A stretch of 33,556 nucleotides of DNA from Gemmatimonadales bacterium. Lineage in GTDB: Bacteria; Gemmatimonadota; Gemmatimonadetes; Gemmatimonadales; GWC2-71-9. A model generated the notes under the pieces. That model worked only from the letters and a program-made list of their open reading frames with translations, had not been told where the DNA came from and did no database searches. The translations under genes were made by a program, and so were the position numbers. Location: the NCBI GenBank assembly GCA_035707845.1, contig DASSTP010000143.1, positions 1 through 33,556 on the forward strand, read 5' to 3'. Shown here one piece after another: positions 1-30,010 of the stretch (the first letter of the stretch is position 1; each line of letters starts with the position of its first letter).

Positions 1-1078
1 GGTCGGCATTGGCGATCACCACGCCCAGCACGTTGTTGAGGTCGTGGGCGATGCCGCCGGTGAGCTGGCCCACCGCTTCCATCTTCTGGGCCTGGCGCAG
101 CTGCTCCTCCAGCGTGCGGCGGGTGCTGATGTCACGCGCGAGCGTCTGCAGCAGTCCGTCGTCGCGGCGCCGGGCCGATACTTCCACGGGAATCAGCGAG
201 CCGTCCTTGCGCCGCAGGACCCGCTCCTCGATCACGTGACGATCATGCTCCATCCGTGGCCAGTGGCCGCCGTGCCGCTCCATATCGCCGGGATCGACCA
301 GTGACTCCATGCGCATGCTGAGGAGTTCGGCGCGGCCATACCCCAGCATGGCGCAGGCCGCGGGATTCACGTCCACCAGGGTTCCATCTTCCCGCGCGAC
401 GAAGAAGCCGTCGGGCGCCTCACCCAGCAGCGTACGATAACGCTCCTCGCTTTCCTCCAGCGCGCGCTCGGCGGCGACGCGCGCCGTCATGTCGTGAATG
501 ATGGAGAACAGCATGGGACGGCCATCCATCTGGACCGGCCCGGCGTGCACTTCCACATCGCGGATGGCGCCGCTGGCGGTGCGGTGCTGGAAGATGAAGT
601 ACTCACCGCCCTCGCGCTGGGCGGAGGAGATGAGGTCGGTGACGCGGTCTGGTGGGAGGGTGTTGATGTCCTGGATGCGGCGGGCGAGCAGTTCGTCGCG
701 CCTCCACCCATAGAACTGCACGGCCGCCTCGTTGGCGTCCATGATGCGGCCGGTGGAAGCGTCGATCAGCATGCACGCCGCACTCGACAGCTCGAACATC
801 TGCCGGTGCCGCGCCTCGCTGGCGAGCAGCTCACGCCGGGCCGCGCGCATCAGCAGGTAGAGCAGCATCGCCGTGCCGGCGATGAAGAACATCCCCTTCA
901 CGGTCTGGAGGTTGGCGAGCAGCACCGAGTTGCCGCTGGAGAGAGCCTCGGCCGCGCGATCGCTGAAGAGGATCCAGAGGATGGCCGCAAGCAGGTAGCC
1001 GGCCGCAATGCGGCCGGGTGTCAGCACCAGATGGAGCGCACGCCGGTCCCGGCGGGCCTGATCCGGCTCGACCTGCAT
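1..1078 (-). CDS. PAS-domain sensor histidine kinase, 5' portion (3' end lies beyond the window start)
   Basis: The minus-strand frame is open from ATG (1078-1076) to position 1. The translation shows an N-terminal hydrophobic segment and two PAS-like blocks ([21 protein letters not shown]; [25 protein letters not shown]). The HisKA H-box region [29 protein letters not shown] lies at the window edge. It is absent from the ORF track because no stop lies inside the window. Confidence 0.85.
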
Positions 1079-1133
1079 GGTACGGCTACCTCCTGCGTTC
1101 TGAGGGTGACAGTGAAAGCGGTGCCCGGCCCCA

Positions 1134-4124
1134 ATGTGCTCCCGTCACCTGACGGAGTGCATTGTGGGACGGTTGCCGGAACTGCTCAAGCGTGTTGCGT
1201 CGTCGGCCGATCTGTCGCCGCTCACGGCGGAATTCGGCGCCCAGCCCTGCTGGGTCGAGATCCCGCCGGCGCCCGGGTGCGCCCGGCTGGCCGTGGCCGG
1301 CCACGCCGCCGATTTCACCTGGCTCGCCGCGGAAGCCGAGGGACCGCCGCCGGTCGCCGTGCGGCGCCTGGCCCGGCGGCTGGCATCCGAGGGGCGCGCG
1401 GCCGGTGTCCTTGGATTCTACCCCGAAGCCCGGCGACTTGCGATTGCCGCCGGGGACCGGCATCTGGTGGTGGCACTGGATCAGCCCGCACCGGTGCACG
1501 TGGCGTGCCTTGCCCGGCTGGCCGACACTCCGGCCGACCTCTGGTACCCCGACCGGGTGCAGGCGGCGCTCTCGGGCAGCGAAGCGGGCGCCGCCTTCTT
1601 CCGCGACTTTCGCCAGGCAGTTGACCGCTTTGCGGCGGCGCTGCCCGGCGGGATGGCTCCGGATGATCGGCGCACGCTGGCGCTGGTGCAGCTCACCCGC
1701 ATGCTCTTCCTCTACTTCGTGGAGAGCAAGGGCTGGCTCGACGGTCATCCCGCCTTCCTGCGCGAGCAGCTCGACCAGTGCCTGGCCCGCGGGCGCAACG
1801 TCCATCGTCACCTCATCCAGCCGCTCTTCTTCGGCGCGCTCAATCGCCCGGCGCGGGCGCGGGCCGATTCCGTAAGAGCCTTCGGCCGCATTCCGTTTCT
1901 CAATGGCGGCCTCTTCGAGCCTCATCCCCTGGAGCAGGCGCACCGGGTGGCGCTGCCCAACGCGGTCTGGCGCGACGCGCTGGACCAGTTGTTCGAGCGC
2001 TACCACTTCACGGTGCACGAGAGCCAGGATGACGCCGCGTCCATAGCCCCCGACATGCTGGGACGGGTGTTCGAGGGAATCATGGCGCCGGACACTCGAA
2101 AGAGTTCCGGCACCTACTACACGCCGGCAGCGCTCGTGCGGCGCCTGGTGGACGCGGGACTGGCCGCGGCGCTCGCGGCGGGGGCGGGCCTGTCGGACGA
2201 GGAGGCATCCGCCCGGCTGGATGCGCGCGACCCCGCGATGATGCGGCGCGCCCTGGCCATGCGAGTGCTCGACCCGGCGTGCGGGTCCGGCGCCTTCCTC
2301 CTCGGCGCTCTCGAACGGCTCGCCGCGCTTCGGTCGCTGGGCGGTGATGCACCCGCGGCGGCACGCCGGGCCGTGCTGGCCCGGAACCTCTACGGCGTCG
2401 ATCTCGATCCGATGGCCGTGCGCCTCGCGGAGCTGCGCCTCTGGCTGGCGGTGGTGGCGGAGGAGCGCGACGTCACGCCGGAGACGGTGCGTCCGCTGCC
2501 GAACCTCGACTGTCTCATCCGCCAGGGCGATGCGCTGCTGGAACCACCGGAGCTCGGCCTGCCGCCTTCGCCACTCGCCTCCCGGCTGCGTGTGGTGCGC
2601 GAGACGCTGGTCCACGCGAGTGGCGACGCCAAGCGCGCGGCCACGCGCGACCTTCGCCGGCTGGAACTGGAGGCCGCCGTGGCCTCGCTCGTCATGGCCG
2701 AACAGCGGGTGACCAGGCGCATTCACGACCTGCTCGACGCCGCACGCGCCCCCGCACTGTTCGAGACGCCGGGCCGGCTGACGCGCGAGCACCGCGCTGA
2801 TCTCCGCCAGCTTCGGCGCGAGCTGCACCGGCTGCGTGGCAGCCGGCGGCGCGCGGTGCGCGAGGGGCAGCTGCCCTGGTTCAGCTTTGCCAGCCAGTTT
2901 GCCGATGTGATCGCCGATGGCGGATTTGACCTGGTGATCGGCAATCCGCCATGGGTGCGCGCCGAGACGCTGGCCCCGGCGCGGCGTGCAATGCTGATCC
3001 GGCGCTATCGGTCATGGCGAGGAGGAGGGACGGCAGGTTACCGGCACCAGCCCGACCTGGCGGTTGCCTTCCTGGAGCGCGCCATCGAGCTGAGCGCTCC
3101 GGCAGGGGCGCTGGCGCTGGTGCTTCCCTCCAAGGTGGCGACCGCCGGCTACGGTTGGGGGATACGCGGGCTGCTCACCGACCGCGCGACCGTTCACGCC
3201 GTGGTGCCGCTCGACCGGGCGGAAGAGGCACGCTTCGCGGCCACGGTGTATCCCATGGCGCTGATCGCGACACGCCGCCAGCCGCCGCCGGGACGGCTGG
3301 TGCGCTCCACACTCGAGCCCGCGCCAGGCGGCACCCCGCTTTCGTTCTACGGCGAGGGCCCGTGGATCATGCGTGGGGGGCGCGCTCCCGCCGTGGTCGA
3401 GGCGCTGGCCACCTCGCATCCGCTCTTCGGCCAGGTCTATCGCTGCCGGCTCGGCGTCAAGACCGGCGCCGACCGCGTCTTCATCGATCCCACCGACGTG
3501 GAAGCACCGCTGTTGCGGCCGCTCCTGCGTGGGCGCGATGTGCGCGCCTTCCACGCGTCGCCGCAGCACACGCTGCTCTGGACCTGTGACGACGATGGCG
3601 TACCACTTACCGACCTGCCGCCGCGCGCCTCGGAGTGGATTGCGTCGCATCGGCGCCAGCTGCTTGCCCGGCGAGACTACCAGGATGGTCCGGCCTGGCA
3701 GCTGTTCCGGACCCGTGGGGCCACCGAACGCTTTCGCGTCGTGTGGCCGGACCTCTCGCGCCAGCTGGTGGCGGCCCCCCTGCTTGGCCCGCTCCGTCGC
3801 GCCATTCCCCTCAACAGTTGCTATGTCGGCAGCATGCCGGATCGGGATGAGCTCCTGGCCGTCACCGGCTGGCTCAACGCGCCCCTGGTCCGCGCCATTG
3901 CCCGCGCCGGCACCACGGAAGCATCGGGCGGCTTTCGCCGGTTCAATGCGACGGTCGTTGGCCGGATTCCGTTTCCCCTCGCGGCCCGCGCGCACCCGGC
4001 ACTGGTGGAGCTGGCGACTGCCGCCGTTCGGGGCGCACCATCGTATCCCGATCTCGACGCCATCGTTGCCGACCTGCTTGGGGTGGATCACCGCGATCGG
4101 CGAGCGTTGCATGCACTGGCCTGA
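1134..4124 (+). CDS. N6-adenine DNA methyltransferase, Eco57I/PglX-like gamma class with TaqI_C-like specificity domain (996 aa)
   Basis: ORF track 1134..4124. It has the SAM motif [15 protein letters not shown] and the catalytic [11 protein letters not shown] (NPPW codons 2943-2954). The MmeI/PglX-type helical region is present ([43 protein letters not shown]). The tail is TaqI_C-like ([23 protein letters not shown]). An in-frame GTG at 1164 is an alternative start. Confidence 0.85.
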
Positions 4125-6333
4125 CCCGGCGCCGCTGATCGTGGCGGAGTCACTGCGGCTTGCCGCCGAGCCGCCGGTGCCGGCGCAGGACCTGTCGCCC
4201 GCGTCATCGGCAACCGTGGCGGCATCGCTAGCGCGACTTGCATGTCCACGCATGGCACCCGACGTCCCACCGCCCTGGCTGCGGCCGGCGCAGGTGGAGC
4301 CGTGGCGCAGGGTGGTGAGCGCGGTACGCGGATTTCGCGGCGCACTGCTGGCGGAGCCGCCAGGCACCGGCAAGACCTGGATCGCGCTTGCCGCGGCGCT
4401 GGCCCTCACGCGGCGGCCCGTCGCCTGCCTGGTGCCGGCGGTGGTCCAGGCGCAGTGGCGCGTCGTGGCCGCGCGCATCGGCGTACCCTTGTCGATTGGC
4501 ACGCACGAGCAGGCGAGTCGCGGCCGGCTTCCATCCTGTCACGAACTGGTGATCGTGGATGAGAGCCACCATTACCGGAACGCGGCCATCAAGCGCTATG
4601 CGCATGTGGCGCGCTGGATGGCCGGTCGGCAGTCGATCCTGCTGTCGGGAACGCCGGTGGTCAATCGGCTGGACGACCTGCTCCACCAGCTCGCACTCGC
4701 CATCCGGGATGATGCGCTCGCACTTCATGGCCTGCCGTCGCTCCGCGCGCTGGGCCAGCGGCCGGAGTTTCCCGAAGCGATGACACGTATCGTGATCCGC
4801 TCGCCGGCACCCAGCGCCCTGCCCAGGCAGCGGTCTCGAACGGTGCATTTCCGCCTGGGGCTGCGCGTGAGCCATGTGCTTCGTGCCATTCGCGCGCTTG
4901 ACATCAGCCCTGACCGGGGTGTGCGGACCCTGGTGCGGGGCGTGCTCATGCGGGCAGCGGCGTCCAGTCCGGCCGCACTCGCTGGTGCACTGAGGCGCTA
5001 TGGCTTCCTGCTCGCCAATCACGCCGACGCGGTGCGGTCGGGGTGCGCGGTGAGTCGCGACGACCTGCGGCGATGGGCCGGCGCCGGAGGCGAGCAGACG
5101 GTGATGTGGGCCATCGTGCGCGACGGCAGTGAGGGCGCCCAGCTCTGTCCCGATGACGCCGTGCGGGTCCGCGCGCTGCTCGCACTGCTGGCCGACATCA
5201 CGCCCGCCGACGATCCCAAGGCGGCCCTCCTCGCCAACCTGCTGGCTGACGGACGGCGAACCCTGGTCTTCACCTGCTCACGCGAGTCGGTGGCCTGGCT
5301 TCGCCGCGCACTCGGCTATCACCGCACCGCATGGTGCACCGGCGAGGGCGCCGGCATCGGCATGGCGCGCTGGCCTCGTGACGAGGTGCTGCGACTGTTC
5401 GGACCCGATGCAAGGGAGCAGGCACCTGCCATCCTTGTCAGCACCGACATCGCCGCCGAAGGGCTCGACCTGCAGCGCGCCGAACGCGTCGTCCACTATG
5501 ACCTGCCCTGGACGCCAGCTCGGCTGGCGCAGCGGGTGGGCCGGGCAGCGCGCCTCGGTGCGGCCGTGGCCGAGGTGGAGGTGGTGCGATTCGATCCGCC
5601 TCGCATGATCGAGCGAGCCATCCATTCGGTGCGCATCCTGAAGGAAAAGGCGGAGTTGCCACAGCGCGCCCGGCTGGTAAACGTCGGGCTGGGCGGATGG
5701 CCCCCGGTCGTAGCCAACGCCGGCGCCGCTGCGGCCTCTCGCGGTGGCATTGCCGTGATCGCTGACACCACGCGCCAAGGCGTCCTGGCCGGTCTCGAGA
5801 TCACCGGCTTCGACGAGCAGGGCCGCCTGGTATCGGGTGGACGATTGCTCTGGGTAGATGCCCAGGGGTGGAGCGACCGACTCGCCGACCTCACCGGTCC
5901 GCTGGTCGAAGCGCTCGCAGCCGATGGCGAACCACCGCCGGGCGAGCGCATCCGGCGCATGGCGCGTGCAAAGGTGGATGTGGCCGTCAACCAGCTTCTC
6001 AGTACGCTCAATGGCAGCATCTGGGAACGGAGCCGGCGGCCGGAACTCGCCGCGCTGATCGAGCGGCTCCGTCACGTGCGGCGCCGGGCAGTGGAGCAGC
6101 GTGACGCGGCGACCGCGGGGCTGGTGTCCGGTGTGCTGCGGCTGGCCGCCTCCGGCCGCACGGCGGGTGAAACCCTCCTGCTCAAGGAACTCACCCGTAC
6201 GTCGGGTCGCTCCGCGCTCCGGGCCATGGCGCTCCTCCCCCGCGCCCGGCCGGTCCAGCGGTTCGAGGTGCGGGTGGCAGGGGTGGTTGTATTTGAAGAT
6301 GGACAGCTGGACAGGTGGACAGATGGACAGTGA
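4111..6333 (+). CDS. SNF2-family SF2 helicase/translocase (740 aa from ATG 4111)
   Basis: Same frame as ORF 3373..6333, but its first 246 codons overlap the methyltransferase gene. The ATG at 4111 overlaps the MTase TGA (4122-4124) by 14 nt. Motifs: LRPAQ, AEPPGTGKT (GTGKT codons 4363-4377), VIVDESHH (DESH 4558-4569), LLSGTPVVNRLDDL, STDIAAEGLDLQ, DLPWTPARLAQRVGRAARLG. ATG 4252 (MAPDVPPPW) is an alternative start. Confidence 0.8.
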   Translation: MHWPDPAPLIVAESLRLAAEPPVPAQDLSPASSATVAASLARLACPRMAPDVPPPWLRPAQVEPWRRVVSAVRGFRGALLAEPPGTGKTWIALAAALALTRRPVACLVPAVVQAQWRVVAARIGVPLSIGTHEQASRGRLPSCHELVIVDESHHYRNAAIKRYAHVARWMAGRQSILLSGTPVVNRLDDLLHQLALAIRDDALALHGLPSLRALGQRPEFPEAMTRIVIRSPAPSALPRQRSRTVHFRLGLRVSHVLRAIRALDISPDRGVRTLVRGVLMRAAASSPAALAGALRRYGFLLANHADAVRSGCAVSRDDLRRWAGAGGEQTVMWAIVRDGSEGAQLCPDDAVRVRALLALLADITPADDPKAALLANLLADGRRTLVFTCSRESVAWLRRALGYHRTAWCTGEGAGIGMARWPRDEVLRLFGPDAREQAPAILVSTDIAAEGLDLQRAERVVHYDLPWTPARLAQRVGRAARLGAAVAEVEVVRFDPPRMIERAIHSVRILKEKAELPQRARLVNVGLGGWPPVVANAGAAAASRGGIAVIADTTRQGVLAGLEITGFDEQGRLVSGGRLLWVDAQGWSDRLADLTGPLVEALAADGEPPPGERIRRMARAKVDVAVNQLLSTLNGSIWERSRRPELAALIERLRHVRRRAVEQRDAATAGLVSGVLRLAASGRTAGETLLLKELTRTSGRSALRAMALLPRARPVQRFEVRVAGVVVFEDGQLDRWTDGQ

Positions 6334-6464
6334 TGGTCGCAGGTCGCAGGTCACAAGTCGCGCGTGCTCGACCGCTGACGACCACTGTCCAACTGTCCAA
6401 CTGTCCAACTGTCCAACTGTCCAACTGTCCAACTGTCCACCTGTCCACCTGTCCATCCGTCCGT
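6301..6464. repeat. Opposed arrays of tandem octamers: GGACAGNT x4 (6301-6330) facing CTGTCCNN x9 (6385-6456, plus degenerate CCGTCCGT), with GGTCGCA-type heptamers (6335-6362) between them
   Basis: Read directly. The left arm is GGACAGCT GGACAGGT GGACAGAT GGACAG. The right arm is 6x CTGTCCAA, 2x CTGTCCAC and 1x CTGTCCAT. GGACAG is the reverse complement of CTGTCC. The inner segment is GGTCGCA GGTCGCA GGTCACA AGTCGCG. The helicase stop TGA (6331-6333) sits between the arrays. Confidence 0.9.
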
Positions 6465-6478
6465 CTATATTTGCTGCC

Positions 6479-7147
6479 ATGCCCCAGCTCACCACGGTGC
6501 TGTTCGACCTCGACGGCACCATCATCGATTCGGTCGGCCTCATCATTGACAGCTATCACCACACGTTGCGCATGCACGGCCTGCCGGCGCGCACTGATGA
6601 GGAGTGGCTGGCGGGGATCGGCACGCCGCTCCGGGTGCAGTTCGCCGAGTGGGCGGAGCAGCCCGGCATCGAGGCGATGATCGCGACCTACCGGGACTAC
6701 AACCTGACCCATCACGACAGCCGGGTCCTGGCCTATCCCGGCGTCGCCGACATGGTGCGCGGCATCCGGGCCATGGGCCTCCGGACCGGCCTCGTCACCA
6801 GCAAGAACCGCTCGGGCGCCGAGCGCGGGCTGCGGGTGGCCGGGCTCGAGGGAACCATGGAAGTGATCATCGGCGCGGATGACGTGGAGAACCCCAAGCC
6901 CCATCCCGAGCCGGTGTTCCGGGCGCTGGACCATCTGGGCGTCAGCGCCGGGGAGTCCATCTACGTGGGCGACAGCGTGCACGACATGCAGGCGGGACGT
7001 GCAGCCGGCGTCCGGACGGCGGCGGTGCTCTGGGGCCCGTTCGCGCGGCCCCACCTGGAGCCCGCCCTGCCCGATCACTGGCTCGAGCGGCCCGACCAGC
7101 TGCTCCAGCTGGCGCGCACCCTCGCACCCACCGCCCTCGCCAACTGA
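6479..7147 (+). CDS. HAD-superfamily hydrolase (phosphoglycolate phosphatase / PpaX-like), 222 aa
   Basis: Internal ATG 6479 of ORF 6101..7147; upstream of it the frame only translates the octamer repeats. HAD motifs: VLFDLDGTIIDS (motif I), LVTSK (II), YVGDSVHDMQAGRAAG (III/IV). Confidence 0.85.
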   Translation: MPQLTTVLFDLDGTIIDSVGLIIDSYHHTLRMHGLPARTDEEWLAGIGTPLRVQFAEWAEQPGIEAMIATYRDYNLTHHDSRVLAYPGVADMVRGIRAMGLRTGLVTSKNRSGAERGLRVAGLEGTMEVIIGADDVENPKPHPEPVFRALDHLGVSAGESIYVGDSVHDMQAGRAAGVRTAAVLWGPFARPHLEPALPDHWLERPDQLLQLARTLAPTALAN

Positions 7148-11703: not shown

Positions 11704-13386
11704 ATGCCCTCACGCCGAGACTTTCTCCAGACTACCGCCGTGTCCGCGCTGGGCATGTCCCTGCCGCCGGGGACACTTGTCGCACAGGAACGCTCGCACA
11801 ACCGGAGCGGTCGGGCGGACACCTTCCTGGATATTCGCCGCACACCCGACCGGGTCAGCGCCCAGCTCGCGAATGATCGCCGGCAGCTCCGCCGGACCGG
11901 CAGCGACCGTTGGGAGAATGCCGGTGTCACGGTCATCACCAGCGCTGCGGATACCGCGCTTGCGGTCAAGGTCGCTGCACCGTCCACCGCCGTCGAGTGG
12001 ATCCACCTTCGGTGGGACGGGCAGCTCGACGGGCTCCAGCTCATCCTTGGCGATGCCTGGGAGCGAGGCTACGGCGACCTCGAATGGCGCGGCTTCGTGC
12101 CCGACCGGGTCATGCCGTGGTACGTGGCCGCATTCGATGGGGAGGTGACCCATGCGTGGGGCGTGCGCACCGGCGCCAGGGCATTCTGCTACTGGCAGCT
12201 GGATCCGCAGGGGATCACGTTGTCGGCGGATGTCCGGAGCGGTGGCACTGGTCTGGAGCTCGGCTCGCGCACCCTGGACGTCTGTCAGGTGACCTGCCGC
12301 GCCGGCAAGCCGGATGAAGCATCGTTCGCCGCGGTGCATGCCTTCTGCGGGATAATGTGCCCCAACCCTCGGCTCGTTTCCCAGCCTGTGTACGGCAGCA
12401 ACGACTGGTACTGGGCTTATGGGAAGAACAGCACCGCCACGGTGCTCGCTGACGCCGGGCACATCGTGGAACTCTCGCCGGACAGCGCCAACCGTCCCTT
12501 CGTCGTGATCGACGACGGCTGGCAGCCCGAACGCAGCGCCAGGGGCGGCAACGTCGGCCTCTGGGATCGTGGAAACGAAAAATTTTCCGACCTTCCCGGC
12601 CTCGCGTCGAGAATCCGCGAGACAGGCGCGCAGCCCGGCATCTGGATCCGGCCACTGCTTGCACCGGATGACACGCCGCGGAGCTGGCGGTTGCCACGCG
12701 ACCAGAAGATCCTTGACCCAACGATCCCCGACGTGCGCCAGAAAGTGGCCGCCGACATTGCCCGGCTCCGTCAGTGGGGTTTCGGGCTGATCAAGCACGA
12801 CTATTCGACGGTGGACATCCTGGGGCGCTGGGGTTTCGAAATGGGGTCGGAACTCACCAGCGATGGATGGACATTCGCCAGCGGCCCCGGCCGAACCACC
12901 GCCGAGGTCATCAACGAATTCTACGGAACAATCCGGCACGCGGCGGACGATGGGATCATCCTCGGCTGCAACACGGTGAGTCATCTCTCGGCGGGGCAGT
13001 TTGAACTGTGCCGAGCCGGCGACGACACCAGCGGCACCGACTGGTCTCGAACCCGCAAGATGGGGGTCAACACGCTGGCCTTCCGGGGGCCCCAGCATGC
13101 CGCGTTTTATGGCGTGGATCCGGACTGCGTGGGCGTCACCAACCAGATTCCCTGGCCGCTGAACCGCCAATGGCTCGATCTGGCCGCCAGGAGCGGGACG
13201 ATGCTCTTTGTTTCACTTGCGCCGGACGCGCTGGGCGAGGCACAACGACGGGACCTCCGCTCCGCACTCGCGATCGCCGCGGAGCCGCAGCCATTAGGTG
13301 AGCCACTGGACTGGCAGCACACGACCTGGCCCACGCGCTGGCGCCTGATGGACGACACGCGGGTGTACGATTGGATTCCTGACTAG
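11704..13386 (+). CDS. Tat-exported glycoside hydrolase, alpha-galactosidase-like (clan GH-D flavour)
   Basis: ORF 11704..13386. The twin-arginine signal is MPSRRDFLQTTAVSALG. The VIDDGWQ and LIKHDYS segments resemble the DDGW and nucleophile K-x-D motifs of GH27/GH36-type enzymes. Family assignment is tentative. Confidence 0.6.
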   Translation: MPSRRDFLQTTAVSALGMSLPPGTLVAQERSHNRSGRADTFLDIRRTPDRVSAQLANDRRQLRRTGSDRWENAGVTVITSAADTALAVKVAAPSTAVEWIHLRWDGQLDGLQLILGDAWERGYGDLEWRGFVPDRVMPWYVAAFDGEVTHAWGVRTGARAFCYWQLDPQGITLSADVRSGGTGLELGSRTLDVCQVTCRAGKPDEASFAAVHAFCGIMCPNPRLVSQPVYGSNDWYWAYGKNSTATVLADAGHIVELSPDSANRPFVVIDDGWQPERSARGGNVGLWDRGNEKFSDLPGLASRIRETGAQPGIWIRPLLAPDDTPRSWRLPRDQKILDPTIPDVRQKVAADIARLRQWGFGLIKHDYSTVDILGRWGFEMGSELTSDGWTFASGPGRTTAEVINEFYGTIRHAADDGIILGCNTVSHLSAGQFELCRAGDDTSGTDWSRTRKMGVNTLAFRGPQHAAFYGVDPDCVGVTNQIPWPLNRQWLDLAARSGTMLFVSLAPDALGEAQRRDLRSALAIAAEPQPLGEPLDWQHTTWPTRWRLMDDTRVYDWIPD

Positions 13387-16471: not shown

Positions 16472-17029
16472 ATGCCCCGACGCCCGAAGTACCACCTCGA
16501 CAAGGTCATGGTAGGAGCTGGAGAGGCGCGCCCCGCCAGCTGGACCTTTGGCGGCGCGGCGCAGCAGGGCACGGAGCAGACCTTCCTCGTCACCGATGGC
16601 AACTTCAGCGCGCGCAATCAATGGGAGTTCATGATCCGCCTGCCCAGGCAGCAGCGGGAACGGATCGAGGTACGGCCTCGCACCACGCCCAACGTCAAGG
16701 TCTGGGCCGAACTGCCGGACCGCTCCATCACCTTCCTGCGCGCGACCCTCGGCGCCGCCCGCGGCAAGCGCTATTGCCAGGTGGCCTTGGCCGATCCCTC
16801 CGGCGGCCGCAGCCGGGTGATCGTGCCGGCCGACCAGCGCGGCGACCTGCCGGCATGGTTCGACCAGCTCCGGGGACGGATGCGAGCCAAGGAGACCGTA
16901 AACCGCACGCGCGGCACCGATGCCAGGGCGCTGGTGCTGCTGGTGAACGAGGGCGACTATCCGACGATGATCCGGATCTTCTTTGCGCTGAAGGTGTGGG
17001 TGTTGAAGGAGAAGTTTGAGATGGAATGA
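16472..17029 (+). CDS. Hypothetical protein, 185 aa, no recognisable domain
   Basis: ORF 16472..17029. AAAGGAG (16459-16465) lies 6 nt before the ATG. Third-position G/C bias is strong and the amino-acid composition is balanced (K, E, F, W, Y present). The overlapping frame 16372..17019 is Arg/Gly/Pro-rich shadow. Confidence 0.7.
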   Translation: MPRRPKYHLDKVMVGAGEARPASWTFGGAAQQGTEQTFLVTDGNFSARNQWEFMIRLPRQQRERIEVRPRTTPNVKVWAELPDRSITFLRATLGAARGKRYCQVALADPSGGRSRVIVPADQRGDLPAWFDQLRGRMRAKETVNRTRGTDARALVLLVNEGDYPTMIRIFFALKVWVLKEKFEME

Positions 17030-20551: not shown

Positions 20552-20603
20552 GGCTTGGGGCGTGAGGGCCACGGATCCTCCCATGCCCCATGCCTCACGC
20601 CCT
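20543..20603. terminator. Hairpin from GCGTGRG heptamers facing CCATGCC/TCACGCC, overlapping both stop codons of convergent genes
   Basis: Pairing 20543-20568 with 20578-20603 includes an 11-bp perfect core (20544-20554 with 20592-20602). The rest has three G:T and two or three mismatches. The D-aminoacylase TGA is at 20549-20551 and the argR stop at 20595-20597. Confidence 0.45.
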
Positions 20604-21047
20604 TCTAACGAAGCGCCCGAGCAGCCTCAGCAATTTTCGCTGCTCACCGCGACCGTGCGTCGCAAGGAAGATCGTGTCGTCGCCCGCGATGGTGCCGACG
20701 ATTTCTCCCCACGCCAGCCGATCGAGCGCGGCGCCGACCCGGCTGGCCTCGCCGGGCGGCGTGTGCAGCACCACCAGGGCATCACCGGCCGGCTCCGCCG
20801 TGAGCACGCCTTCGGCAATCCGCCGCTCATCCGGATCATCTGCGTTGATGGCACCCGTTTCCGGCCGGCGGTACGCGCCACCCACTTTCACCAGCCCCAG
20901 CGCCGCAATGTCCCGGCTCACGCTCGACTGGGTGACGTCCCACCCTTCCGATGCCAGCGCCTCGGCCACGTCTTCCTGGGTCTTGAGGGCCCGGGTCTCG
21001 ATCATCTCCAGGATCTTGAGCTGCCGCTTCCGGCGATCGTTCGTCAT
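20595..21047 (-). CDS. argR: Arginine repressor ArgR (150 aa)
   Basis: Internal ATG 21047 of ORF 20595..21083. The winged-helix N-domain is RQLKILEMIETRALKTQEDVAEALASEGWDVTQSSVSRDIAALGLVK. The C-terminal oligomerisation/arginine-binding domain has GTIAGDDTIF. It is the last gene of the arg cluster. Confidence 0.9.
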   Translation of the reverse strand: MTNDRRKRQLKILEMIETRALKTQEDVAEALASEGWDVTQSSVSRDIAALGLVKVGGAYRRPETGAINADDPDERRIAEGVLTAEPAGDALVVLHTPPGEASRVGAALDRLAWGEIVGTIAGDDTIFLATHGRGEQRKLLRLLGRFVRRA

Positions 21048-21051
21048 GGCA

Positions 21052-22419
21052 TCATCTCCCTGCCAGGCGCCGCATGGCAACATCGAACCGGCGTCGCTCA
21101 GCGCGCTGCCAGCGTTCGACCTGGCGCACCCGCTGGCGCGCCTCGGTCAGCCCCACGTTGCCCACGCCGCCGGTCGAGCGGCGACGCACCAGCAGTTGGC
21201 CGGCGGTTGGCGGGTCGAACTGTTCGCCGCCCTTGATCGCGGCCGCCACCTCGCGATAGGCGCGCCGGAAGGGGACGCCACTCTCCACCCGGCGCATCAC
21301 CTCATCGGTGGCAAGCGCGCCGCCGGCAAGCGCCGCCTGGCAGCGTTCACGGTCCACCGTCAGCGTCGGAACGGCGGTCGCCATCATCGCGAGCATCTCG
21401 CGGGTCCGGTCCAGCCCGCGGAAGAGCGGCTCCTTGAGGAGCTGGAAGTCCCGATGATAGCCGCTCGCCAGCTTCCCCTTGAGCAGGAGCAGGGAGACCA
21501 GGTCCCCGTCCAGCGCCGCCGCGCGCGCGCGCGTCAGCTCGAAGAGATCGGGATTGCGCTTGTGCGGCATGATGCTCGACCCCGTGGCCAGTTCGGCCGG
21601 CAGGATGAGATAGCCGAACTCCTCCGCGCTGTAGAGAATGGCATCGACCGACAGCCGGGAGAGTTCGTGCCCCAGCTGGCCACACCAGGCGAGCACCGCG
21701 GCCTCCAGCTTGCCCCGGCCGTTCTGCACTGTCGCCACATTGCGGTCGAGGCCGCCGAAGCCGAGGGCGCGGGCGGTTTCTTCACGCTTGAGTGGCAGGG
21801 GCACGCCGTATCCAGCCGCGCTTCCGAGCGGGCAGCGGTCCACCCGCGCCCATATGGACGGAAGCCCCTCCAATGTGTCGAGCACGCCCTCGGCCAACGC
21901 CCCGGCCCACAGTGCCACCGACGACGGCATGGCTCGGCGCTGGTGCGTGTAACCGGGCCAGAGGACGGTGCGATGGCGGCCGCCAAACTGCAGCAGCGCC
22001 GCCGCGAGCGCCGTAGCCGCGGCATGCAGGTCGAGCAGGGCATCCTTGAGATACAGCCGCAGGTCCACGGCCACCTGGTCATTGCGCGAGCGTCCGGCAT
22101 GCAGCCGCTCACCTGCGTCCCTGCTCCGTCGCGTGAGCCAGCTCTCCACCGCCGTATGGGCGTCCTCCTGGTCACGCGCGACGGTGAGGCGCCCTGCGTT
22201 CACCTCTCGGAGTGCGGCCCGCAGCCCGTGGCGCAGGGAGCGGTACTCCGCATCCCGCAACAGGCGTGATGCGCGTAACCCTTCGACGTGGCCGAGGCTG
22301 CCGAGCACGTCCCAGCGCAGCAGGCGGGCATCCCACACCGGATCATCGCCGATGGTGTAGGCCAGCATCTGCGCGTCAGGTGCCGCGCCGGGCGACCAGA
22401 GCGTGCGGGGCTCCTTCAT
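21052..22419 (-). CDS. argH: Argininosuccinate lyase (455 aa)
   Basis: Internal ATG 22419 of ORF 21052..22530; this ATG overlaps the argE stop as ATGA. Fumarate-lyase family signature GSSIMPHKRNPD. Other ArgH blocks: WPGYTHQRRAMP, RSRNDQVAVD. Confidence 0.95.
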   Translation of the reverse strand: MKEPRTLWSPGAAPDAQMLAYTIGDDPVWDARLLRWDVLGSLGHVEGLRASRLLRDAEYRSLRHGLRAALREVNAGRLTVARDQEDAHTAVESWLTRRSRDAGERLHAGRSRNDQVAVDLRLYLKDALLDLHAAATALAAALLQFGGRHRTVLWPGYTHQRRAMPSSVALWAGALAEGVLDTLEGLPSIWARVDRCPLGSAAGYGVPLPLKREETARALGFGGLDRNVATVQNGRGKLEAAVLAWCGQLGHELSRLSVDAILYSAEEFGYLILPAELATGSSIMPHKRNPDLFELTRARAAALDGDLVSLLLLKGKLASGYHRDFQLLKEPLFRGLDRTREMLAMMATAVPTLTVDRERCQAALAGGALATDEVMRRVESGVPFRRAYREVAAAIKGGEQFDPPTAGQLLVRRRSTGGVGNVGLTEARQRVRQVERWQRAERRRFDVAMRRLAGR

Positions 22420-23492
22420 GCGAGGTATCGCTCCGCCACCTGGGCATAGAGGTCCCGGGCCGCACTCACTTCGTGGAGGTCCACGTATTCGTCCGGCGTG
22501 TGGGAGCGCCGGCTGGTGCCGGGTCCGCACTTGACCGCATCGCGGTCGCGCAGGAAGACCCAGTCGGAACAGGTGGGGCTCCCATAGGAGCGCGACGCGC
22601 GACGCGTGGCCTGCATGATGGGCAGGAGCCGCGACGTGCCGGGCGTCTCGCAGGGCACCAGCCTGTCGGAGGTCACGACCACTTCGGACGCGAGCGACTC
22701 CCGGAGCCGCTGGGCGATCTGGTCATGCGGCCACGCCGGTGTGCTGCGAATATCGAGCACTGCACGCGCCGACGGCGGCGTCACGTTCCGGCTCACGCCT
22801 GCCTCGAGCATCGTGGGCGTGACCGTCGGCGCGCCGAGAACGGGATGGGGCCGGTCGGGAAAGAGGCTTGCGAGCTTGAGCAGGTCACCCGCCAGGAGAA
22901 GGGCGGCGTTGGTGAACTCGCCATCGGTAGATGCGTACCCTGCGTGACGCTGGTCCCCACTGGCGACGAGATCCACCATCATGAGTCCCCGCTGCGCTAC
23001 GGCGAGATCGAGGTTGGTGGGCTCACCGATGATGGCCGCGTCGATGGCACCCGAGCGCCGCACGGCCTCGGGCATGGTGGTGAGGCGCGTTTCCTCACCA
23101 TAGCCCAGGATCACCAGCACCCGGCCGCGCGCCAGTCGCCGGTCGCGAGCGAGATCCCAGGCTGCTGCCAGCATCGCCGCCACGGGCCCCTTGGCATCGC
23201 CGGCACCGCGCCCGTAGAGGCGGCCTTCCTCGATGGAGGCACGGAAGGGATCGCGCGTCCATCCTTCACCGGCCGGCACCGTGTCGAGGTGCGAGACCAG
23301 CGCCAGCGTCGGCCCGGGTCCCTCGCCACGCACCTCGATGCGCACGCCCGCGTCGTCGCGCGTGGCATCCAGCCCCCACTCGCGGGCGCGCGCTTCCACG
23401 AGACGGCCCACCGCCTCCTCGCTGCCGCTCACCGAGGCGGTGGAGACCAGCTCGCGCAGCAGCTCAATCTCGGGAGGCCAGGTCAACGCCAA
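22416..23492 (-). CDS. argE: M20-family deacylase (ArgE/DapE-like; acetyl- or succinyl-citrulline/ornithine deacylase)
   Basis: ORF 22416..23492 (TTG start; the first 29 nt overlap the argB 3' end). M20 motifs: LVSHLDTVP, GRGAGDAKG, GYGEET. Its position lies between argB and argH. Confidence 0.8.
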   Translation of the reverse strand: MALTWPPEIELLRELVSTASVSGSEEAVGRLVEARAREWGLDATRDDAGVRIEVRGEGPGPTLALVSHLDTVPAGEGWTRDPFRASIEEGRLYGRGAGDAKGPVAAMLAAAWDLARDRRLARGRVLVILGYGEETRLTTMPEAVRRSGAIDAAIIGEPTNLDLAVAQRGLMMVDLVASGDQRHAGYASTDGEFTNAALLLAGDLLKLASLFPDRPHPVLGAPTVTPTMLEAGVSRNVTPPSARAVLDIRSTPAWPHDQIAQRLRESLASEVVVTSDRLVPCETPGTSRLLPIMQATRRASRSYGSPTCSDWVFLRDRDAVKCGPGTSRRSHTPDEYVDLHEVSAARDLYAQVAERYLA

Positions 23493-24399
23493 GGTAGGTT
23501 GCCTTCTCCTTCCGCCCGACGATCATCGTGCCGCATCCGGCACCGGTGAACACCTCAGTCAAGAGCGCATCAGGCTGGCGGCCATCCACGATGTGGGTGC
23601 GCTCGACGCCGCCGGTAGCCGCGCGGATGCAGGCTTCCACCTTCGGCTTCATCCCGCCCGAGAGCGCGCCGCTCTGCATCAGTTCGGTCAGGTCGTCGGG
23701 ATCGGCAAAGGCGACCAGCGTCGAGGGATCGTTCCGGTCCCGGAGCACCCCCGGCGCACCGGTGAGAAAGATGAGCTTCTGGGCGCGCAGTGCCGTGGCG
23801 ATGGCTTCGGCCACCGTGTCGGCGTTGACGTTGTAGACGTTACCCTCGTCGTCACCGGCGAGGCTCGCCACCACCGGCACGAACCGCGCATCCAGCAGCG
23901 TCGTGAGCACCCTGGCATCCACCCGGTCCACGTCGCCCACGTGCCCGAAGTCCACCCGTTGCTGCCTGCCGTCGTCGCCGACCAGGTCCACGGGGAGACG
24001 GCGGTGCGCCGTGAGCAGGTCCGCGTCCACGCCGGTGATGCCGACCGCCTGCACCCGATGCTCGCGGAGCGCAGCAATGAGATCCGTACTCAGCAGGCCG
24101 GCATACACCATCTTGGCCACTTCGAGTGCCGCATCATCCGTGACCCGCCGCCCGCCGACCATCACCGGCTCCTGGCCCATGCGGCGCGACAGCGCCGAGG
24201 CCTGCGGGCCGCCGCCATGCACCACCACCAGGCGGATGCTGAGCGACTGCAGCAACGCCAGTTGCGTGGCCACCTGGTCCAGCACCTCGGCGTCCTGCAG
24301 CACTTCGCCGCCGAGCTTGACGACAAACACCTGGTCCCGGTACGCGCGCACATAGCGCAGTGCGCCCTTGAGGCCGGTGAGGGATGGGTCGAGGGACAA
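23464..24399 (-). CDS. argB: N-acyl-L-glutamate kinase (311 aa)
   Basis: ORF 23464..24399 (TTG start). Amino-acid-kinase family motifs: VVKLGGEVL, VVVHGGGPQ, NVNADTVA. It has the kinase domain only, with no fused GNAT/NAGS domain. Confidence 0.9.
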   Translation of the reverse strand: MSLDPSLTGLKGALRYVRAYRDQVFVVKLGGEVLQDAEVLDQVATQLALLQSLSIRLVVVHGGGPQASALSRRMGQEPVMVGGRRVTDDAALEVAKMVYAGLLSTDLIAALREHRVQAVGITGVDADLLTAHRRLPVDLVGDDGRQQRVDFGHVGDVDRVDARVLTTLLDARFVPVVASLAGDDEGNVYNVNADTVAEAIATALRAQKLIFLTGAPGVLRDRNDPSTLVAFADPDDLTELMQSGALSGGMKPKVEACIRAATGGVERTHIVDGRQPDALLTEVFTGAGCGTMIVGRKEKATYLGVDLASRD

Positions 24400-24414
24400 T
24401 GGGGTCTCCTGTCA

Positions 24415-24475
24415 GGGCATGGGGCATGGGGCGTGGGGCGTGGGGTCTCAAGCCCCATGCCTCATGCCTCATGCC
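24415..24475. repeat. Heptamer hairpin / G-tract array: GGG CAT GGGG CAT GGGG CGT GGGG CGT GGGG - loop - GCCCCAT GCCTCAT GCCTCAT GCC
   Basis: Read directly. It fills most of the 69-nt argF'-argB gap (24400-24468). Pairing 24423-24445 with 24453-24475 includes four G:T positions. Confidence 0.9.
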
Positions 24476-25476
24476 ATCAGTTCCAGCAACAACGCCCGCT
24501 GCACATGCAACCGGTTTTCCGCCTCGTCCACCACGACCGAGTGGGGGCCGTCGAGCACCGCGTCATCGATCTCCACGTTGCGGCGGACCGGGAGACAGTG
24601 CATCACGATGCCGGCGCCGGCACGGGTCGCCTGCTGGCGCTCGGCGGTCATCCGCCAGTGCCGGTACGGTTCACGCAGGACGCCCTCGGCCTCCGGCCGC
24701 CCGAACGCGTTGAGGGCGCCCCAGGACTTCACGTAGACGGCGTCCGCGTCTGCCAGCGCGACATCGAGGTCTTCCGATTCCGTCACGGAACCGCCGGCAT
24801 CCGCGGCGCAACGTGCGATTGTCGCCATGTCGTCCGGATCGAGCGCATAGCCAGGTGGCCGGGCAATCACCACGTCCATGCCCATCATCGCGCCGGCGAC
24901 GGCGGCGCTCGCGGGCACCGCAGTCGGCAGTGGCTTGGGATGCCAGGCCCAGGCGAGCACGAATTTCTTCCGACGAGTGTCACCCAGCTTTTCACGGAGC
25001 GTCATCGCGTCGGCCAGGCCCTGGCAGGGATGCCGCCGTGTGCTCTCCATGTTGATGACCGGCTTGGACGAGTAGCGGGCAAAGTCCCGGATGATCCGGT
25101 CCTCACGCGCCACGTCCCATGTCCCGCCCTTGGGAAAGGCACGCACGGCGAGCGCGTCGGCATAGCGCGAGAGGACCCGCGCCGCCTCGATGACGTGCTC
25201 CACCGAGGTCCCGTCCATCACCACGCCGTGCTCGGTCTCGAGCGTCCAGCTTCCCTTGCCGGGCTCGAGGATGAGGGCGTGTCCGCCGTGCAGGAACATC
25301 CCGGTCTCGAAGCTCGACCGGGTGCGGAGGCTCGGGTCCATGAAGATGGCCGCCAGCACCTTGCGCTCGAGGCCGCCGGTGACCTCTCCCTGCTTGATGC
25401 GCGCGGCCAGCGCCAGCAATTGCTCGACGCCGTCCCGCCCCCAGTCTTCCATGGCGAGAAAATCGCGGCCGCTCAC
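24469..25476 (-). CDS. argF': N-acyl-L-ornithine carbamoyltransferase (AOTCase/SOTCase type, not a canonical OTCase), 335 aa
   Basis: ORF 24469..25476 (GTG start overlapping the argD stop as GTGA). Carbamoyl-phosphate motifs are SLRTRSSFE and HPCQGLAD. The OTCase D-x-x-x-S-M-G ornithine loop is replaced by VYVKSWGAL. MHCLPVRRN, WTLETEHGVVMDG and ENRLHVQ match the acyl-ornithine transcarbamylases of Xanthomonas and Bacteroides as I remember them. Confidence 0.8.
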   Translation of the reverse strand: MSGRDFLAMEDWGRDGVEQLLALAARIKQGEVTGGLERKVLAAIFMDPSLRTRSSFETGMFLHGGHALILEPGKGSWTLETEHGVVMDGTSVEHVIEAARVLSRYADALAVRAFPKGGTWDVAREDRIIRDFARYSSKPVINMESTRRHPCQGLADAMTLREKLGDTRRKKFVLAWAWHPKPLPTAVPASAAVAGAMMGMDVVIARPPGYALDPDDMATIARCAADAGGSVTESEDLDVALADADAVYVKSWGALNAFGRPEAEGVLREPYRHWRMTAERQQATRAGAGIVMHCLPVRRNVEIDDAVLDGPHSVVVDEAENRLHVQRALLLELMA

Positions 25477-29963: not shown

Positions 29964-29979
29964 AATGCATAAATATGCA
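29959..29979. promoter_or_regulatory. Candidate ARG-box operator: overlapping palindromes TGCATAATGCA (29959-29969) and TGCATAAATATGCA (29966-29979)
   Basis: This is the only strongly AT-rich patch in the region. The arms TGCATA/TATGCA are perfect around AA, and TGCAT/ATGCA are perfect around A. It overlaps the argG start codon (29961-29963), and an argR gene closes the same operon. TGCAT-containing ARG boxes are known in other lineages. Confidence 0.55.
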
Positions 29980-29999
29980 GAACGGCCGCCTGGCGTCAA
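29970..29999 (-). promoter_or_regulatory. Possible sigma70-like promoter of the arg operon (TTGACG - 18 nt - TATTTA), 6 nt before the argG ATG
   Basis: The minus strand reads TTGACG (29999-29994), an 18-nt spacer, TATTTA (29975-29970), TGCATT, then ATG (29963-29961). Caveat: the TTGACG lies inside the 13-mer GGCGCTTGACGCC, which also occurs at 13412-13424 where no promoter is expected. Confidence 0.3.
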
Positions 30000-30010
30000 G
30001 CGCCGAGCGC

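Follow-up and report, generated by a model that had tools for sequence, protein, structure and literature searches.

Modules that combine a DNA methylase with a translocase are known as mobile, fast-turning-over defence systems. In BREX, methylation depends on partner proteins, and the ATP motor of Type ISP enzymes (LlaGI/LlaBIII) is not known to be of the Snf2 class. The AchA6III type consists of a methylase and recognition protein of MmeI architecture without PD-ExK and an adjacent fusion of a PLD nuclease and a translocase (Blow et al. 2016, PMC4752239). The helicases of the Hma and DUF499-centred BREX-related systems have a Tudor domain and, in most cases, an active nuclease (PMC12839542), and in MANTIS the loading of the BREX-type methylase on DNA needs an ATPase (10.64898/2026.09.23.753747). 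Orphan methylases are conserved far more often than restriction-linked ones (57% vs 9% at the genus level), and those with a regulatory role are typified by lineage-wide conservation in the absence of a cognate nuclease (PMC4752239).

We analysed a 33.5-kb stretch of DNA (the window), which encodes on its + strand an overlapping pair of genes, a methylase followed by a Swi2/Snf2 ATPase that we refer to as the helicase, and whose features are collected in Table 1. The initial annotation had read the pair as open reading frames of 996 and 740 aa, and these frames, their overlap and all the motifs it quoted are present in the translations; the methylase start at 1134 gives way to the likelier GTG at 1164, which matches a 986-aa NCBI protein (P0121) and the N-termini of homologues. 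Third-position GC is 0.83 in the methylase and 0.79 in the helicase, which indicates that both are coding. In most of the pair orthologues compared the overlap is about 20-90 nt long and always in the +1 register, so that the methylase TGA falls inside the Ala-Glu codons of the helicase motif IVAE[SA]L. Inspection of the sequence upstream of the methylase (1080..1163) revealed no sigma-70-type consensus, and a similar spacer, of 88 nt, is found in locus L001.

Table 1. Coordinates of the methylase-helicase pair and of adjoining features, as positions in the window
Feature	Position	Strand	Details
Divergent intergenic stretch, PAS sensor kinase (minus strand, probable ATG at 1079) / methylase	1080..1163	.	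Presumed promoter region
N6-adenine DNA methyltransferase gene	1164..4124	+	986 aa; alternative ATG at 1134 (ORF 1134-4124, 996 aa)
Methylase N-terminal domain, ~aa 24-130	1203..1523	+	Alpha-beta-beta-beta-alpha-beta nuclease-like topology (model), without catalytic residues
Methylase helical domain, MmeI/PglX type, aa 171-300	1644..2033	+	Weak Pfam DUF7814 and MmeI_hel; PDB profile match to MmeI 5hr4 over positions 180-432
Methylase SAM-binding motif, aa 378-392	2265..2309	+	D380, P381, A382, G384, S385, G386, A387, F388, L389 invariant in 120 sequences
Long helical (coiled-coil-like) insertion between methylase motifs III and IV, aa 471-580	2544..2873	+	Model helices 480-538, 551-577
Methylase catalytic motif IV GNPPWV, aa 603-608	2940..2957	+	G603, N604, P605, P606, W607 invariant in 120 sequences
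Single target-recognition domain, aa 736-950	3339..3983	+	M.BseCI recognition-domain profile match 2.1e-18; CamA and M.BseCI fold matches
14-nt overlap, helicase ATG 4111 / methylase TGA 4122-4124	4111..4124	+	Translational coupling
Swi2/Snf2-family ATPase (DNA translocase) gene	4111..6333	+	740 aa from ATG 4111
Helicase Walker A / motif I AEPPGTGKT, aa 81-89	4351..4377	+	G85, G87, K88 invariant in 120 sequences
Helicase Walker B / motif II VIVDESHH, aa 147-154	4549..4572	+	D150, E151 invariant
Helicase motif VI with arginine finger QRVGRAARLG, aa 474-483	5530..5559	+	Q474, R475, G477, R478, R481 invariant
Family-specific C-terminal alpha+beta/helical domain of helicase, aa 501-740	5611..6330	+	Confident model: strands 547-588, 719-728; helices 591-708
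G-x-T-A-G-E motif of helicase C-domain, aa 682-687	6154..6171	+	Conservation: G686 100%, A685 97%, E687 92%, G682 92%, T684 90%
HAD phosphatase (PpaX / phosphoglycolate-phosphatase-like)	6476..7147	+	Pfam HAD_2 9.6e-48; NCBIfam PpaX 200 bits vs cut-off 218

Judged from its sequence and predicted structure, the first gene encodes a gamma-class N6-adenine DNA methyltransferase of MmeI/PglX architecture with one recognition domain of the TaqI/BseCI/CamA type. The order of its motifs, with motif I preceding motif IV (NPPW), and family-level profile matches place it in the Eco57I/MmeI group: Pfam Eco57I is matched at 6.7e-23 (82 bits vs a cut-off of 25.3), N6_Mtase at 2.3e-13 (50.6 vs 20.4) and MmeI_Mtase at 9.8e-9 (35.2 vs 27), while DUF7814 and MmeI_hel score under their cut-offs. 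Foldseek searches with a confident model (pLDDT 87.5) returned CamA, BrxX/PglX (9ewz, 1.5e-18, and 8c45; TMq 0.46-0.49), M.BseCI and MmeI (5hr4; TMq 0.50, TMt 0.65), and together with the PDB profile search they recovered the MmeI-type layout of a helical spacer, a methylase and a single C-terminal recognition domain. CamA is the best fold match of the catalytic and recognition part (7rfk, 8e-21, target TM 0.72). The tail had been described as TaqI_C-like; Pfam TaqI_C itself gave no match at E<=0.01, but both in profile and in fold the tail does resemble the recognition domains of M.BseCI (2e-18) and CamA. Likewise, the label PglX-like suits the architecture but not the family level, where the NCBIfam models for the BREX_1/2/5/6 MTaseX (PglX) reach 35-66 bits against equivalog cut-offs of 400-900. 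In distant orthologues the recognition domain is nearly as conserved (47-56% identity) as the catalytic halves (54-63%), and among orthologues the helical domain is 61-66% identical and the helical insertion only 39-43%. The N-terminal domain, 40% identical in distant orthologues, has no column with a conserved Lys and no PD-ExK active site in an alignment of 120 homologues, and its acidic positions 60 and 67 are conserved in just 58-70% of them.

The second gene encodes a Swi2/Snf2 ATPase with all ATPase motifs intact, a private C-terminal domain and no nuclease. An SF2 core, Snf2-type motifs and an Snf2-like fold assign it to the Snf2 family, and Pfam matches it with Helicase_C (1.9e-17), ResIII (3.4e-7) and SNF2-rel_dom (3.2e-6), the last over a short stretch and just above the cut-off (26.9 vs 24.9 bits). 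The structure model is again confident (pLDDT 87.6) and has RapA as its top Foldseek match, followed by Chd1, ISW1, Ino80, Mot1 and SMARCAD1; RapA, a Sulfolobus Rad54-like protein and ISWI rank first in the PDB profile search, and no Type ISP or HsdR structure occurs within the top 50 fold matches. The motifs for ATP binding and hydrolysis are intact, with G85, G87, K88, D150, E151, Q474, R475 and R478 invariant in 120 homologues. The C-terminal domain is only 27-38% identical among orthologues; it has no Pfam match, no conserved Lys or His in the 120 homologues and no PLD or PD-(D/E)xK site. Pfam likewise finds no PLD domain on the helicase, and the PADLOC models PLD_Helicase and HKD+Snf2 match only within its C-lobe.

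Comparison of related genomes identifies the methylase-helicase pair as an orthologous unit of Gemmatimonadales chromosomes. The best 80 genome matches all belong to Gemmatimonadales or Gemmatimonadota, and a syntenic pair is found in the best 80/80 genome loci as well as in more distant members. Wherever a locus is informative, that is, contains enough upstream DNA, the methylase lies immediately upstream of the helicase, down to about 35-40% identity; the two genes are together in all related loci examined and separated in none, and a scan anchored on the HAD gene gave only five informative loci. The shared neighbourhood is of a housekeeping kind (S66 peptidase, GT2, the pair, HAD phosphatase, and PhoU/PitA or ArgR and the arg operon), with identical synteny at 62%, 45% and 42% helicase identity and also in a lower-scoring member, P0499. 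More than 150 full-length clusters were obtained at 50% identity, and the open reading frames are intact across dozens of species; all members found come from metagenome-assembled genomes, with no cultured carrier identified among them. The distance matrices of methylase and helicase are closely correlated (Mantel r = 0.96-0.97), and the distances of the pair correlate with those of its neighbours (HAD r = 0.85-0.86, PHO4 r = 0.76-0.78). The pair co-diverges internally and with the surrounding housekeeping genes across Gemmatimonadales, which points to vertical inheritance at one chromosomal spot. Both genes are under strong purifying selection, with dN/dS of 0.07 for the methylase and 0.13-0.14 for the helicase, compared with 0.03-0.08 for the neighbours.

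The window contains no gene for a nuclease, PglZ, BrxC, DrmA/B/C or DUF499 and no tRNA, integrase or defence island, and its remaining genes are all housekeeping. The initial annotation had proposed a stand-alone, tightly coupled methylase-translocase pair free of known partner genes and nuclease motifs, and this description is borne out by the window, by the Pfam, PADLOC and NCBIfam searches and by the scan of conserved residues; the neighbourhood comparison it called for shows adjacency and overlap kept in all informative related loci. The enrichment in defence islands that was to be looked for did not appear, the pair lying instead in one conserved housekeeping neighbourhood. Of its unrelated flanks, the PAS kinase is indeed peculiar to the close lineage of the window, whereas the HAD phosphatase is conserved downstream of the pair and in many lineages may belong to the operon as its third gene. 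Across 76 loci the distance from helicase to HAD gene is 10 nt or less in 27, 11-100 nt in 16, 101-600 nt in 22 and more than 600 nt in 11; because the HAD gene abuts or overlaps the helicase in the first of these groups, the statement that the module is exactly two genes may not strictly hold. The HAD gene is itself next to phosphate-transport genes.

Searches of mobile elements gave no relatives of the helicase in phages and a single weak match on plasmids. The best plasmid relative of the methylase (25% identical over 84% of our protein) is encoded by pRadio5 of Deinococcus radiophilus (L086), in a locus that also carries an HKD+Snf2 nuclease-helicase 27-29% identical to our helicase over both lobes, and this arrangement of methylase and nuclease-translocase is that of the AchA6III type (PMC4752239).

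Being nuclease-free and vertically inherited at one chromosomal spot, the pair looks more like a disarmed restriction system kept for housekeeping DNA marking than like a mobile anti-phage system. The synteny in the best 80/80 loci, with no nuclease nearby, is the group-wide conservation without a cognate restriction nuclease that characterises orphan methylases. We put at roughly 0.5 the probability that the pair derives from split Type IIG-like systems (AchA6III type), has been domesticated without a nuclease and works as an ATP-motor-assisted housekeeping methylation machine. In such a machine both proteins would act as one complex, in which the Snf2 motor spends ATP on tracking along or remodelling double-stranded DNA and thereby loads, delivers or activates the methylase. 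The methylase would place m6A on one strand of a short asymmetric motif chromosome-wide, as do other MmeI-type enzymes with a single recognition domain, and the mark would serve housekeeping (epigenetic regulation, or the marking of replication or repair) and not self/non-self discrimination. The ancestor may have been a split Type IIG-like restriction system made of a methylase and a nuclease-Snf2 protein; both nuclease functions would have been lost and the pair then fixed in the ancestor of the lineage. In the MmeI family a few substitutions can switch specificity, and a recognition-domain identity of about 50% is therefore no proof of one shared motif.

The main rival to the domesticated-methylation reading is a chromosomally fixed, non-cleaving defence of BREX-like logic, in which the methylase marks self and, on an unmodified invader, the complex binds its sites while the motor, without any cleavage, displaces or obstructs the proteins of replication or transcription. 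Nuclease-free defence does exist, as in BREX, so the missing nuclease leaves room for immunity. The architecture is common to PglX/BrxX and MmeI, the nearest mobile relatives lie in defence-type loci, and the best PADLOC matches, all of them partial, are to defence proteins (REase_MTase_IIG 1e-35, DrmMI 1.2e-32, DrmD 9.5e-21); the helicase C-domain and the methylase N-domain also evolve fastest, and the low identity of the former could fit an arms race too. We nevertheless regard this defence as rather unlikely, since the pair keeps the same chromosomal slot and the same housekeeping neighbours to about 35-40% identity and co-diverges with them, its dN/dS values resemble those of housekeeping genes, conservation extends to its recognition domain, phages have no relative of the helicase and plasmids hardly any, the methylase has no plasmid relative closer than 25%, the window is devoid of defence island, integrase and tRNA, and the NCBIfam defence models all score far under their cut-offs. 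These observations also speak against the minimal defence system offered as one option by the initial annotation; its second option, an epigenetic device, fits the data better.

An arrangement that we hold to be improbable is a dispersed restriction system, in which the pair would recognise, modify and translocate DNA and a gene at another genomic site would provide the nuclease or some other effector. Precedents exist in split Type IIG-like systems that encode translocase and nuclease separately, such as the OspHL35III type (PMC4752239), and our view is limited to 33.5 kb of the genome; however, more than 80 related loci share no such gene within 6-10 kb of the pair, HAD, PhoU/PHO4, S66 peptidase, GT2 and arg genes being the sole conserved neighbours, and defence partners normally adjoin one another. 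Equally improbable is a transcription- or repair-coupled device in which the Snf2 protein, like RapA, works at stalled RNA polymerase or at lesions, the methylase marks the DNA there and the HAD phosphatase, frequently in one operon with the pair, contributes to the pathway. Although E. coli RapA is the best structural match of the helicase (2.9e-17, nearly full length) and the HAD gene (PpaX / phosphoglycolate-phosphatase group) lies within 10 nt of it in 27/76 loci, the TM-scores to RapA are low (0.33-0.35), and the HAD gene, which adjoins phosphate-transport genes, is more than 600 nt from the pair in 11/76 loci. RapA contacts RNA polymerase through its N-terminal domains. These include a tandem Tudor (PMC12839542) and are without counterpart in the helicase, because only about 55 residues lie ahead of its first RecA-like lobe. 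Finally, a decaying, functionless remnant of a restriction system might be suspected from the nuclease-like methylase N-domain that lacks catalytic residues, but reading frames intact in dozens of species, invariant catalytic motifs and, above all, the selection data contradict decay and make it exceedingly improbable.

Among described systems, the AchA6III type shares with the pair its two genes, a single recognition domain for the whole system and an MmeI-like methylase without a nuclease motif of its own beside an Snf2-type translocase; it differs in having a PLD-family endonuclease fused to the translocase, whereas the helicase here has no PLD/HKD or other nuclease domain, and the pair is inherited vertically in a housekeeping context and not on mobile DNA. 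Type IIG/IIL enzymes of the MmeI type have an in-chain N-terminal PD-ExK active site that the methylase lacks. BREX resembles the pair in the architecture and fold of PglX/BrxX and in its nuclease-free logic, but PglZ, BrxC, BrxA, BrxB and BrxL are all absent from the window, and PglZ and BrxC are absent also from the related loci, whose other genes are housekeeping. Class 1 DISARM likewise combines an N6-adenine methylase (DrmMI) with an Snf2-like helicase (DrmD), and DrmD is the best NCBIfam match of our helicase, although at 89.8 bits against a cut-off of 610 and in the C-lobe only; DrmA, DrmB (DUF1998) and DrmC (PLD) are absent from the window and the related loci. With the Hma and DUF499-centred BREX-related systems and MANTIS the pair has in common a methylase, an Snf2 helicase and ATP-dependent steps, but the Hma/DUF499 systems include a DUF499 AAA+ ATPase and a methylase of the PglXI/DUF1156 type, neither of which occurs in the pair or elsewhere in the window, and the PADLOC HmaA match extends over only 67 residues (2.2e-13). 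Type ISP enzymes also unite an ATP motor, a gamma-class adenine methylase and a single recognition domain, but in one polypeptide with an active Mrr-type nuclease, where the pair has two genes, the methylase first, and no nuclease.

The pair would thus have lost all nuclease functions, yet a whole order of abundant soil bacteria retains it at a single chromosomal position, where it is under strong purifying selection. If methylation does require the motor, bacteria would have here their first housekeeping system of ATP-motor-dependent DNA methylation, and the pair would clearly exemplify the domestication of an immune system for the use of the cell; if its role is defence, the system would be unusually minimal, free of nucleases and stably inherited, and instructive for BREX-like exclusion. 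The conserved orphan methylases CamA (Clostridioides difficile), Dam and CcrM differ from it in having neither a dedicated, translationally coupled Snf2 partner nor the MmeI-type N-terminal half. A bolder and quite tentative proposal is that a whole bacterial order maintains its adenine methylome through a dedicated motor of the Snf2 remodeller type coupled to the methylase, derived from a restriction system that was disarmed and then retained as a core housekeeping function; this would be a bacterial counterpart of the partnership between DDM1/LSH and DNA methyltransferases. DDM1 and LSH appear among the fold and sequence matches of the helicase with no orthology implied, and they work on nucleosomes and cytosine methylation; DDM1 and LSH/HELLS are thus functional analogues only, likened to the pair as Snf2 ATPases that give a DNA methyltransferase access to its sites.

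The gene pair described in the initial annotation is confirmed, and all of the motifs quoted there for the N6-adenine DNA methyltransferase (methylase) and the Swi2/Snf2 ATPase (helicase) were found in the translations of the two ORFs. Pfam searches returned Eco57I, N6_Mtase and MmeI_Mtase for the first protein and Helicase_C, ResIII and SNF2-rel_dom for the second. The window has a GC content of ~70% that is uniform (about 0.68-0.73) along its length. The reported overlap of 14 nt, between the helicase ATG at 4111 and the methylase TGA at 4122-4124, was borne out; the methylase start at ATG 1134 is less likely, as it adds ten residues that have no counterpart among homologues. The start is more probably GTG 1164, because a protein begun there has the 986 aa annotated by NCBI and an N-terminus that matches those of the homologues. 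In about 50 related loci (among those labeled L010-L082) the methylase TGA falls within GCT-GAG, the Ala-Glu codons of a conserved helicase N-terminal motif, IVAE[SA]L, and the overlap spans roughly 20-90 nt in a fixed +1 register, while in the window's clade the methylase has lost eight codons at its C-terminus and the overlap is 14 nt. Owing to the fixed register, a programmed +1 frameshift that would join both proteins was considered, but with in-frame start codons and a variable, disordered helicase N-terminus the simpler explanation is ordinary translational coupling. Scans for promoters and terminators found none that exceeded chance.

Features of the window, with their positions and strands
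Feature	Position	Strand	Remarks
PAS sensor kinase	2-1079	-	divergent, upstream of the pair
Methylase ORF	1134-4124	+	third-position GC 0.83, coding
IVAE[SA]L motif	4111-4140		13 nt after the methylase stop in the window's clade
Helicase ORF	4111-6333	+	third-position GC 0.79, coding
G-x-T-A-G-E motif, helicase C-domain	6154-6171		at helix start
HAD phosphatase (PpaX / phosphoglycolate-phosphatase-like)	6334-7147		range includes the gap after the helicase; present after the helicase in most orthologous loci
ORF	11704-13383		well coded, no significant Pfam family; TAT signal and weak melibiase match only
ORF	16472-17026		well coded, no significant Pfam family
ArgR and arginine-biosynthesis cluster	20598-30000		argininosuccinate lyase, M20 deacetylase, acetylglutamate kinase, ornithine carbamoyltransferase, aminotransferase, semialdehyde dehydrogenase, argininosuccinate synthase
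ORF	27664-28755		well coded, no significant Pfam family

For each protein there are hundreds of full-length homologues at ~40-50% identity, and those that carry a name all belong to Gemmatimonadales or Gemmatimonadota. With each GTDB species represented by a single genome, a scan identified at least 556 relatives; the best 80 are all from this lineage, Gemmatimonadaceae and Gemmatimonas MAGs among them. Searching 1.84 billion cluster representatives with a profile yielded over 150 clusters of full-length proteins (at 50% identity), with scores declining smoothly from 986 to 470 bits. All members found are MAGs or metagenome contigs; a look-up of cluster members and a search that started from a Gemmatimonas MAG's helicase found no cultured carrier. 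The adjacency and overlap of the two genes are conserved in all informative related loci, and in every locus with enough upstream DNA the gene immediately upstream of the helicase, in the same orientation, is a methylase orthologue. A metagenome scan anchored on the HAD gene, limited to five informative loci, found the pair in all five with no clear absences. The order S66 peptidase, hypothetical gene, GT2 glycosyltransferase, methylase, helicase, HAD, then PhoU/PHO4 or ArgR with the arginine operon, is kept in loci whose helicases have 62%, 45% and 44% identity, and also around P0475 (42% over the motor) and P0499, which are among the most distant members retrieved.

The PAS sensor kinase adjoins the pair only in the close relatives of the window (loci L001 and L006-L008), and in more distant lineages its place is taken by a GT2 glycosyltransferase or a small HATPase/receiver gene, so that the kinase gene looks like a lineage-specific insertion. 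Downstream lie the HAD phosphatase, PhoU_div with the phosphate transporter PHO4, and further housekeeping genes including the ArgR and arginine cluster; in the distant relatives L002, L167 and L168 this cluster follows directly 3' of the HAD gene, and the chromosomal region is therefore stable. The HAD gene follows the helicase in most orthologous loci, L013, L017, L037, L167 and L168 among them. The two are separated by 10 nt or less (abutting or overlapping) in 27 of 76 loci and by more than 600 nt in 11 of the 76; the overlap is the same 46 nt in about 14 loci and 4 nt in L168, and the gap in the window is about 142 nt. In many lineages the functional unit could thus comprise three genes in one operon. 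A functional link between the pair and the HAD phosphatase, by analogy with dam-gph in E. coli, was considered and rejected, as the genes are linked in position, though loosely, and the idea has no mechanistic support.

Methylase and helicase distance matrices are correlated at r=0.96-0.97 (pairwise, Mantel), and their distances correlate with those of HAD at r=0.85-0.86 and of PHO4 at 0.76-0.78, all Mantel p values being <=5e-4. Against three close relatives, dN/dS was 0.07 for the methylase, 0.13-0.14 for the helicase, 0.05-0.08 for PhoU and 0.03-0.06 for PHO4. Among distant orthologues identity was 54-63% in the methylase catalytic halves, about 40% in its N-domain, 27-38% in the helicase C-domain and 47-56% in the methylase recognition domain, a conservation that does not establish one shared specificity. 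Searches for relatives of the helicase found none in phages and a single weak match in plasmids, and the best plasmid relative of the methylase is 25% identical. Together, these results have the pattern of vertical inheritance of a functional unit and not of a mobile defence island. A mobile element or defence island at this site was rejected, as the GC is uniform and no tRNA, integrase, nuclease or defence genes were found in the 33.5-kb window.

The AlphaFold models are confident, with pLDDT of 87.6 (helicase) and 87.5 (methylase). The best fold match of the helicase is E. coli RapA (2.9e-17), followed by eukaryotic Snf2 remodellers, and sequence profiles agree. Its two RecA-like lobes with a helical insertion are followed by a private alpha+beta/helical C-domain that carries an almost invariant GxTAGE motif, resembling no nameable motif, next to a beta-sheet in which W581, G557 and L559 are invariant; the motif is a candidate for an interface or for ligand binding. 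Over its catalytic and recognition part the methylase matches CamA (8e-21, target TM 0.72) and M.BseCI, and over its full length BrxX/PglX and MmeI (TMq 0.46-0.50). Its N-domain is modeled with an alpha-beta-beta-beta-alpha-beta topology of the PD-(D/E)xK kind, in which no column has a conserved lysine and the acidic positions are only 58-70% conserved; from topology rather than a domain-level fold search, we read it as a probable dead nuclease remnant. A hidden nuclease was rejected, since neither this domain nor the helicase C-domain has a conserved Lys or His or matches a nuclease profile.

Both enzymes are intact, obligately linked, nuclease-free, vertically inherited and under purifying selection, and we infer that they form a complex. 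The Snf2 motor would translocate on or remodel duplex DNA and so load or activate the methylase, which, as an MmeI-type enzyme with a single recognition domain, is expected to modify a single strand of a short asymmetric motif. After replication one daughter duplex would lack the mark at each site and would therefore require de novo methylation every round, so that a factor using ATP for searching or loading is plausible. There is precedent in orphan methylases, 57% of which show genus-level conservation versus 9% of restriction-linked ones (PMC4752239), and in MANTIS, where methylase loading is ATPase-dependent (10.64898/2026.09.23.753747).

We give this housekeeping, motor-assisted methylation a probability of about 0.5. 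A fixed, non-cleaving defence system would also do without a nuclease, and it is the use emphasized in the initial annotation; vertical inheritance, the one conserved neighborhood and the lack of a defence island do not support that emphasis, and we consider it unlikely, if still a serious candidate. The epigenetic device offered beside it is favoured, without being proven. A dispersed system would place its effector at an unlinked site, and a RapA-like transcription- or repair-coupled role would agree with the best fold match of the helicase; we regard both as improbable. Simple decay has next to no credibility beside two intact enzymes under purifying selection.

The view of a stand-alone pair is supported by the comparison with known systems, the nuclease and partner genes of which are absent from the window. 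BREX, DISARM, Hma/BR, MADS, Dpd and Zorya were each rejected, because PADLOC and NCBIfam gave only partial, sub-threshold matches to generic methylase and helicase cores: PADLOC REase_MTase_IIG (1e-35), DrmMI (1.2e-32) and DrmD (9.5e-21), for which no cut-off is given, NCBIfam DrmD (89.8 bits, cut-off 610) and PglX models (35-66 bits, cut-off 400-900). The partner genes by which BREX, DISARM, Hma/BR or Type ISP are defined are all missing, and a Type ISP or Type I/III-like motor was set aside because the top fold matches are all Snf2 or RIG-I-like. The DUF499-centred Hma/BR systems differ in methylase type, helicase architecture and their obligatory ATPase (PMC12839542). We take the pair for a split Type IIG-like methylase/Snf2 module, nuclease-free and probably domesticated. 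No earlier account of such a methylase-helicase pair from Gemmatimonadota was found in the literature open to searching. In the AchA6III type, a split Type IIG-like system, an MmeI-architecture methylase that has no PD-ExK motif is adjacent to a gene for a PLD-nuclease/translocase fusion, and in the related OspHL35III type translocase and nuclease are in separate genes (PMC4752239, Blow et al.). The nearest plasmid relative of the pair's methylase lies on Deinococcus radiophilus plasmid pRadio5 (locus L086, 7671-17094), where this Type IIG-like methylase is accompanied by a DUF262 protein, two small ORFs and an HKD+Snf2 helicase-nuclease; over both motor lobes the latter is 27-29% identical to the pair's helicase. 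Many toxin-antitoxin pairs surround this locus. It is a mobile cousin of the pair, and possibly an uncharacterised defence system itself. Because this relative lies in a locus of the AchA6III type, the Gemmatimonadales pair is best seen as a nuclease-less derivative of AchA6III-type split Type IIG-like systems.
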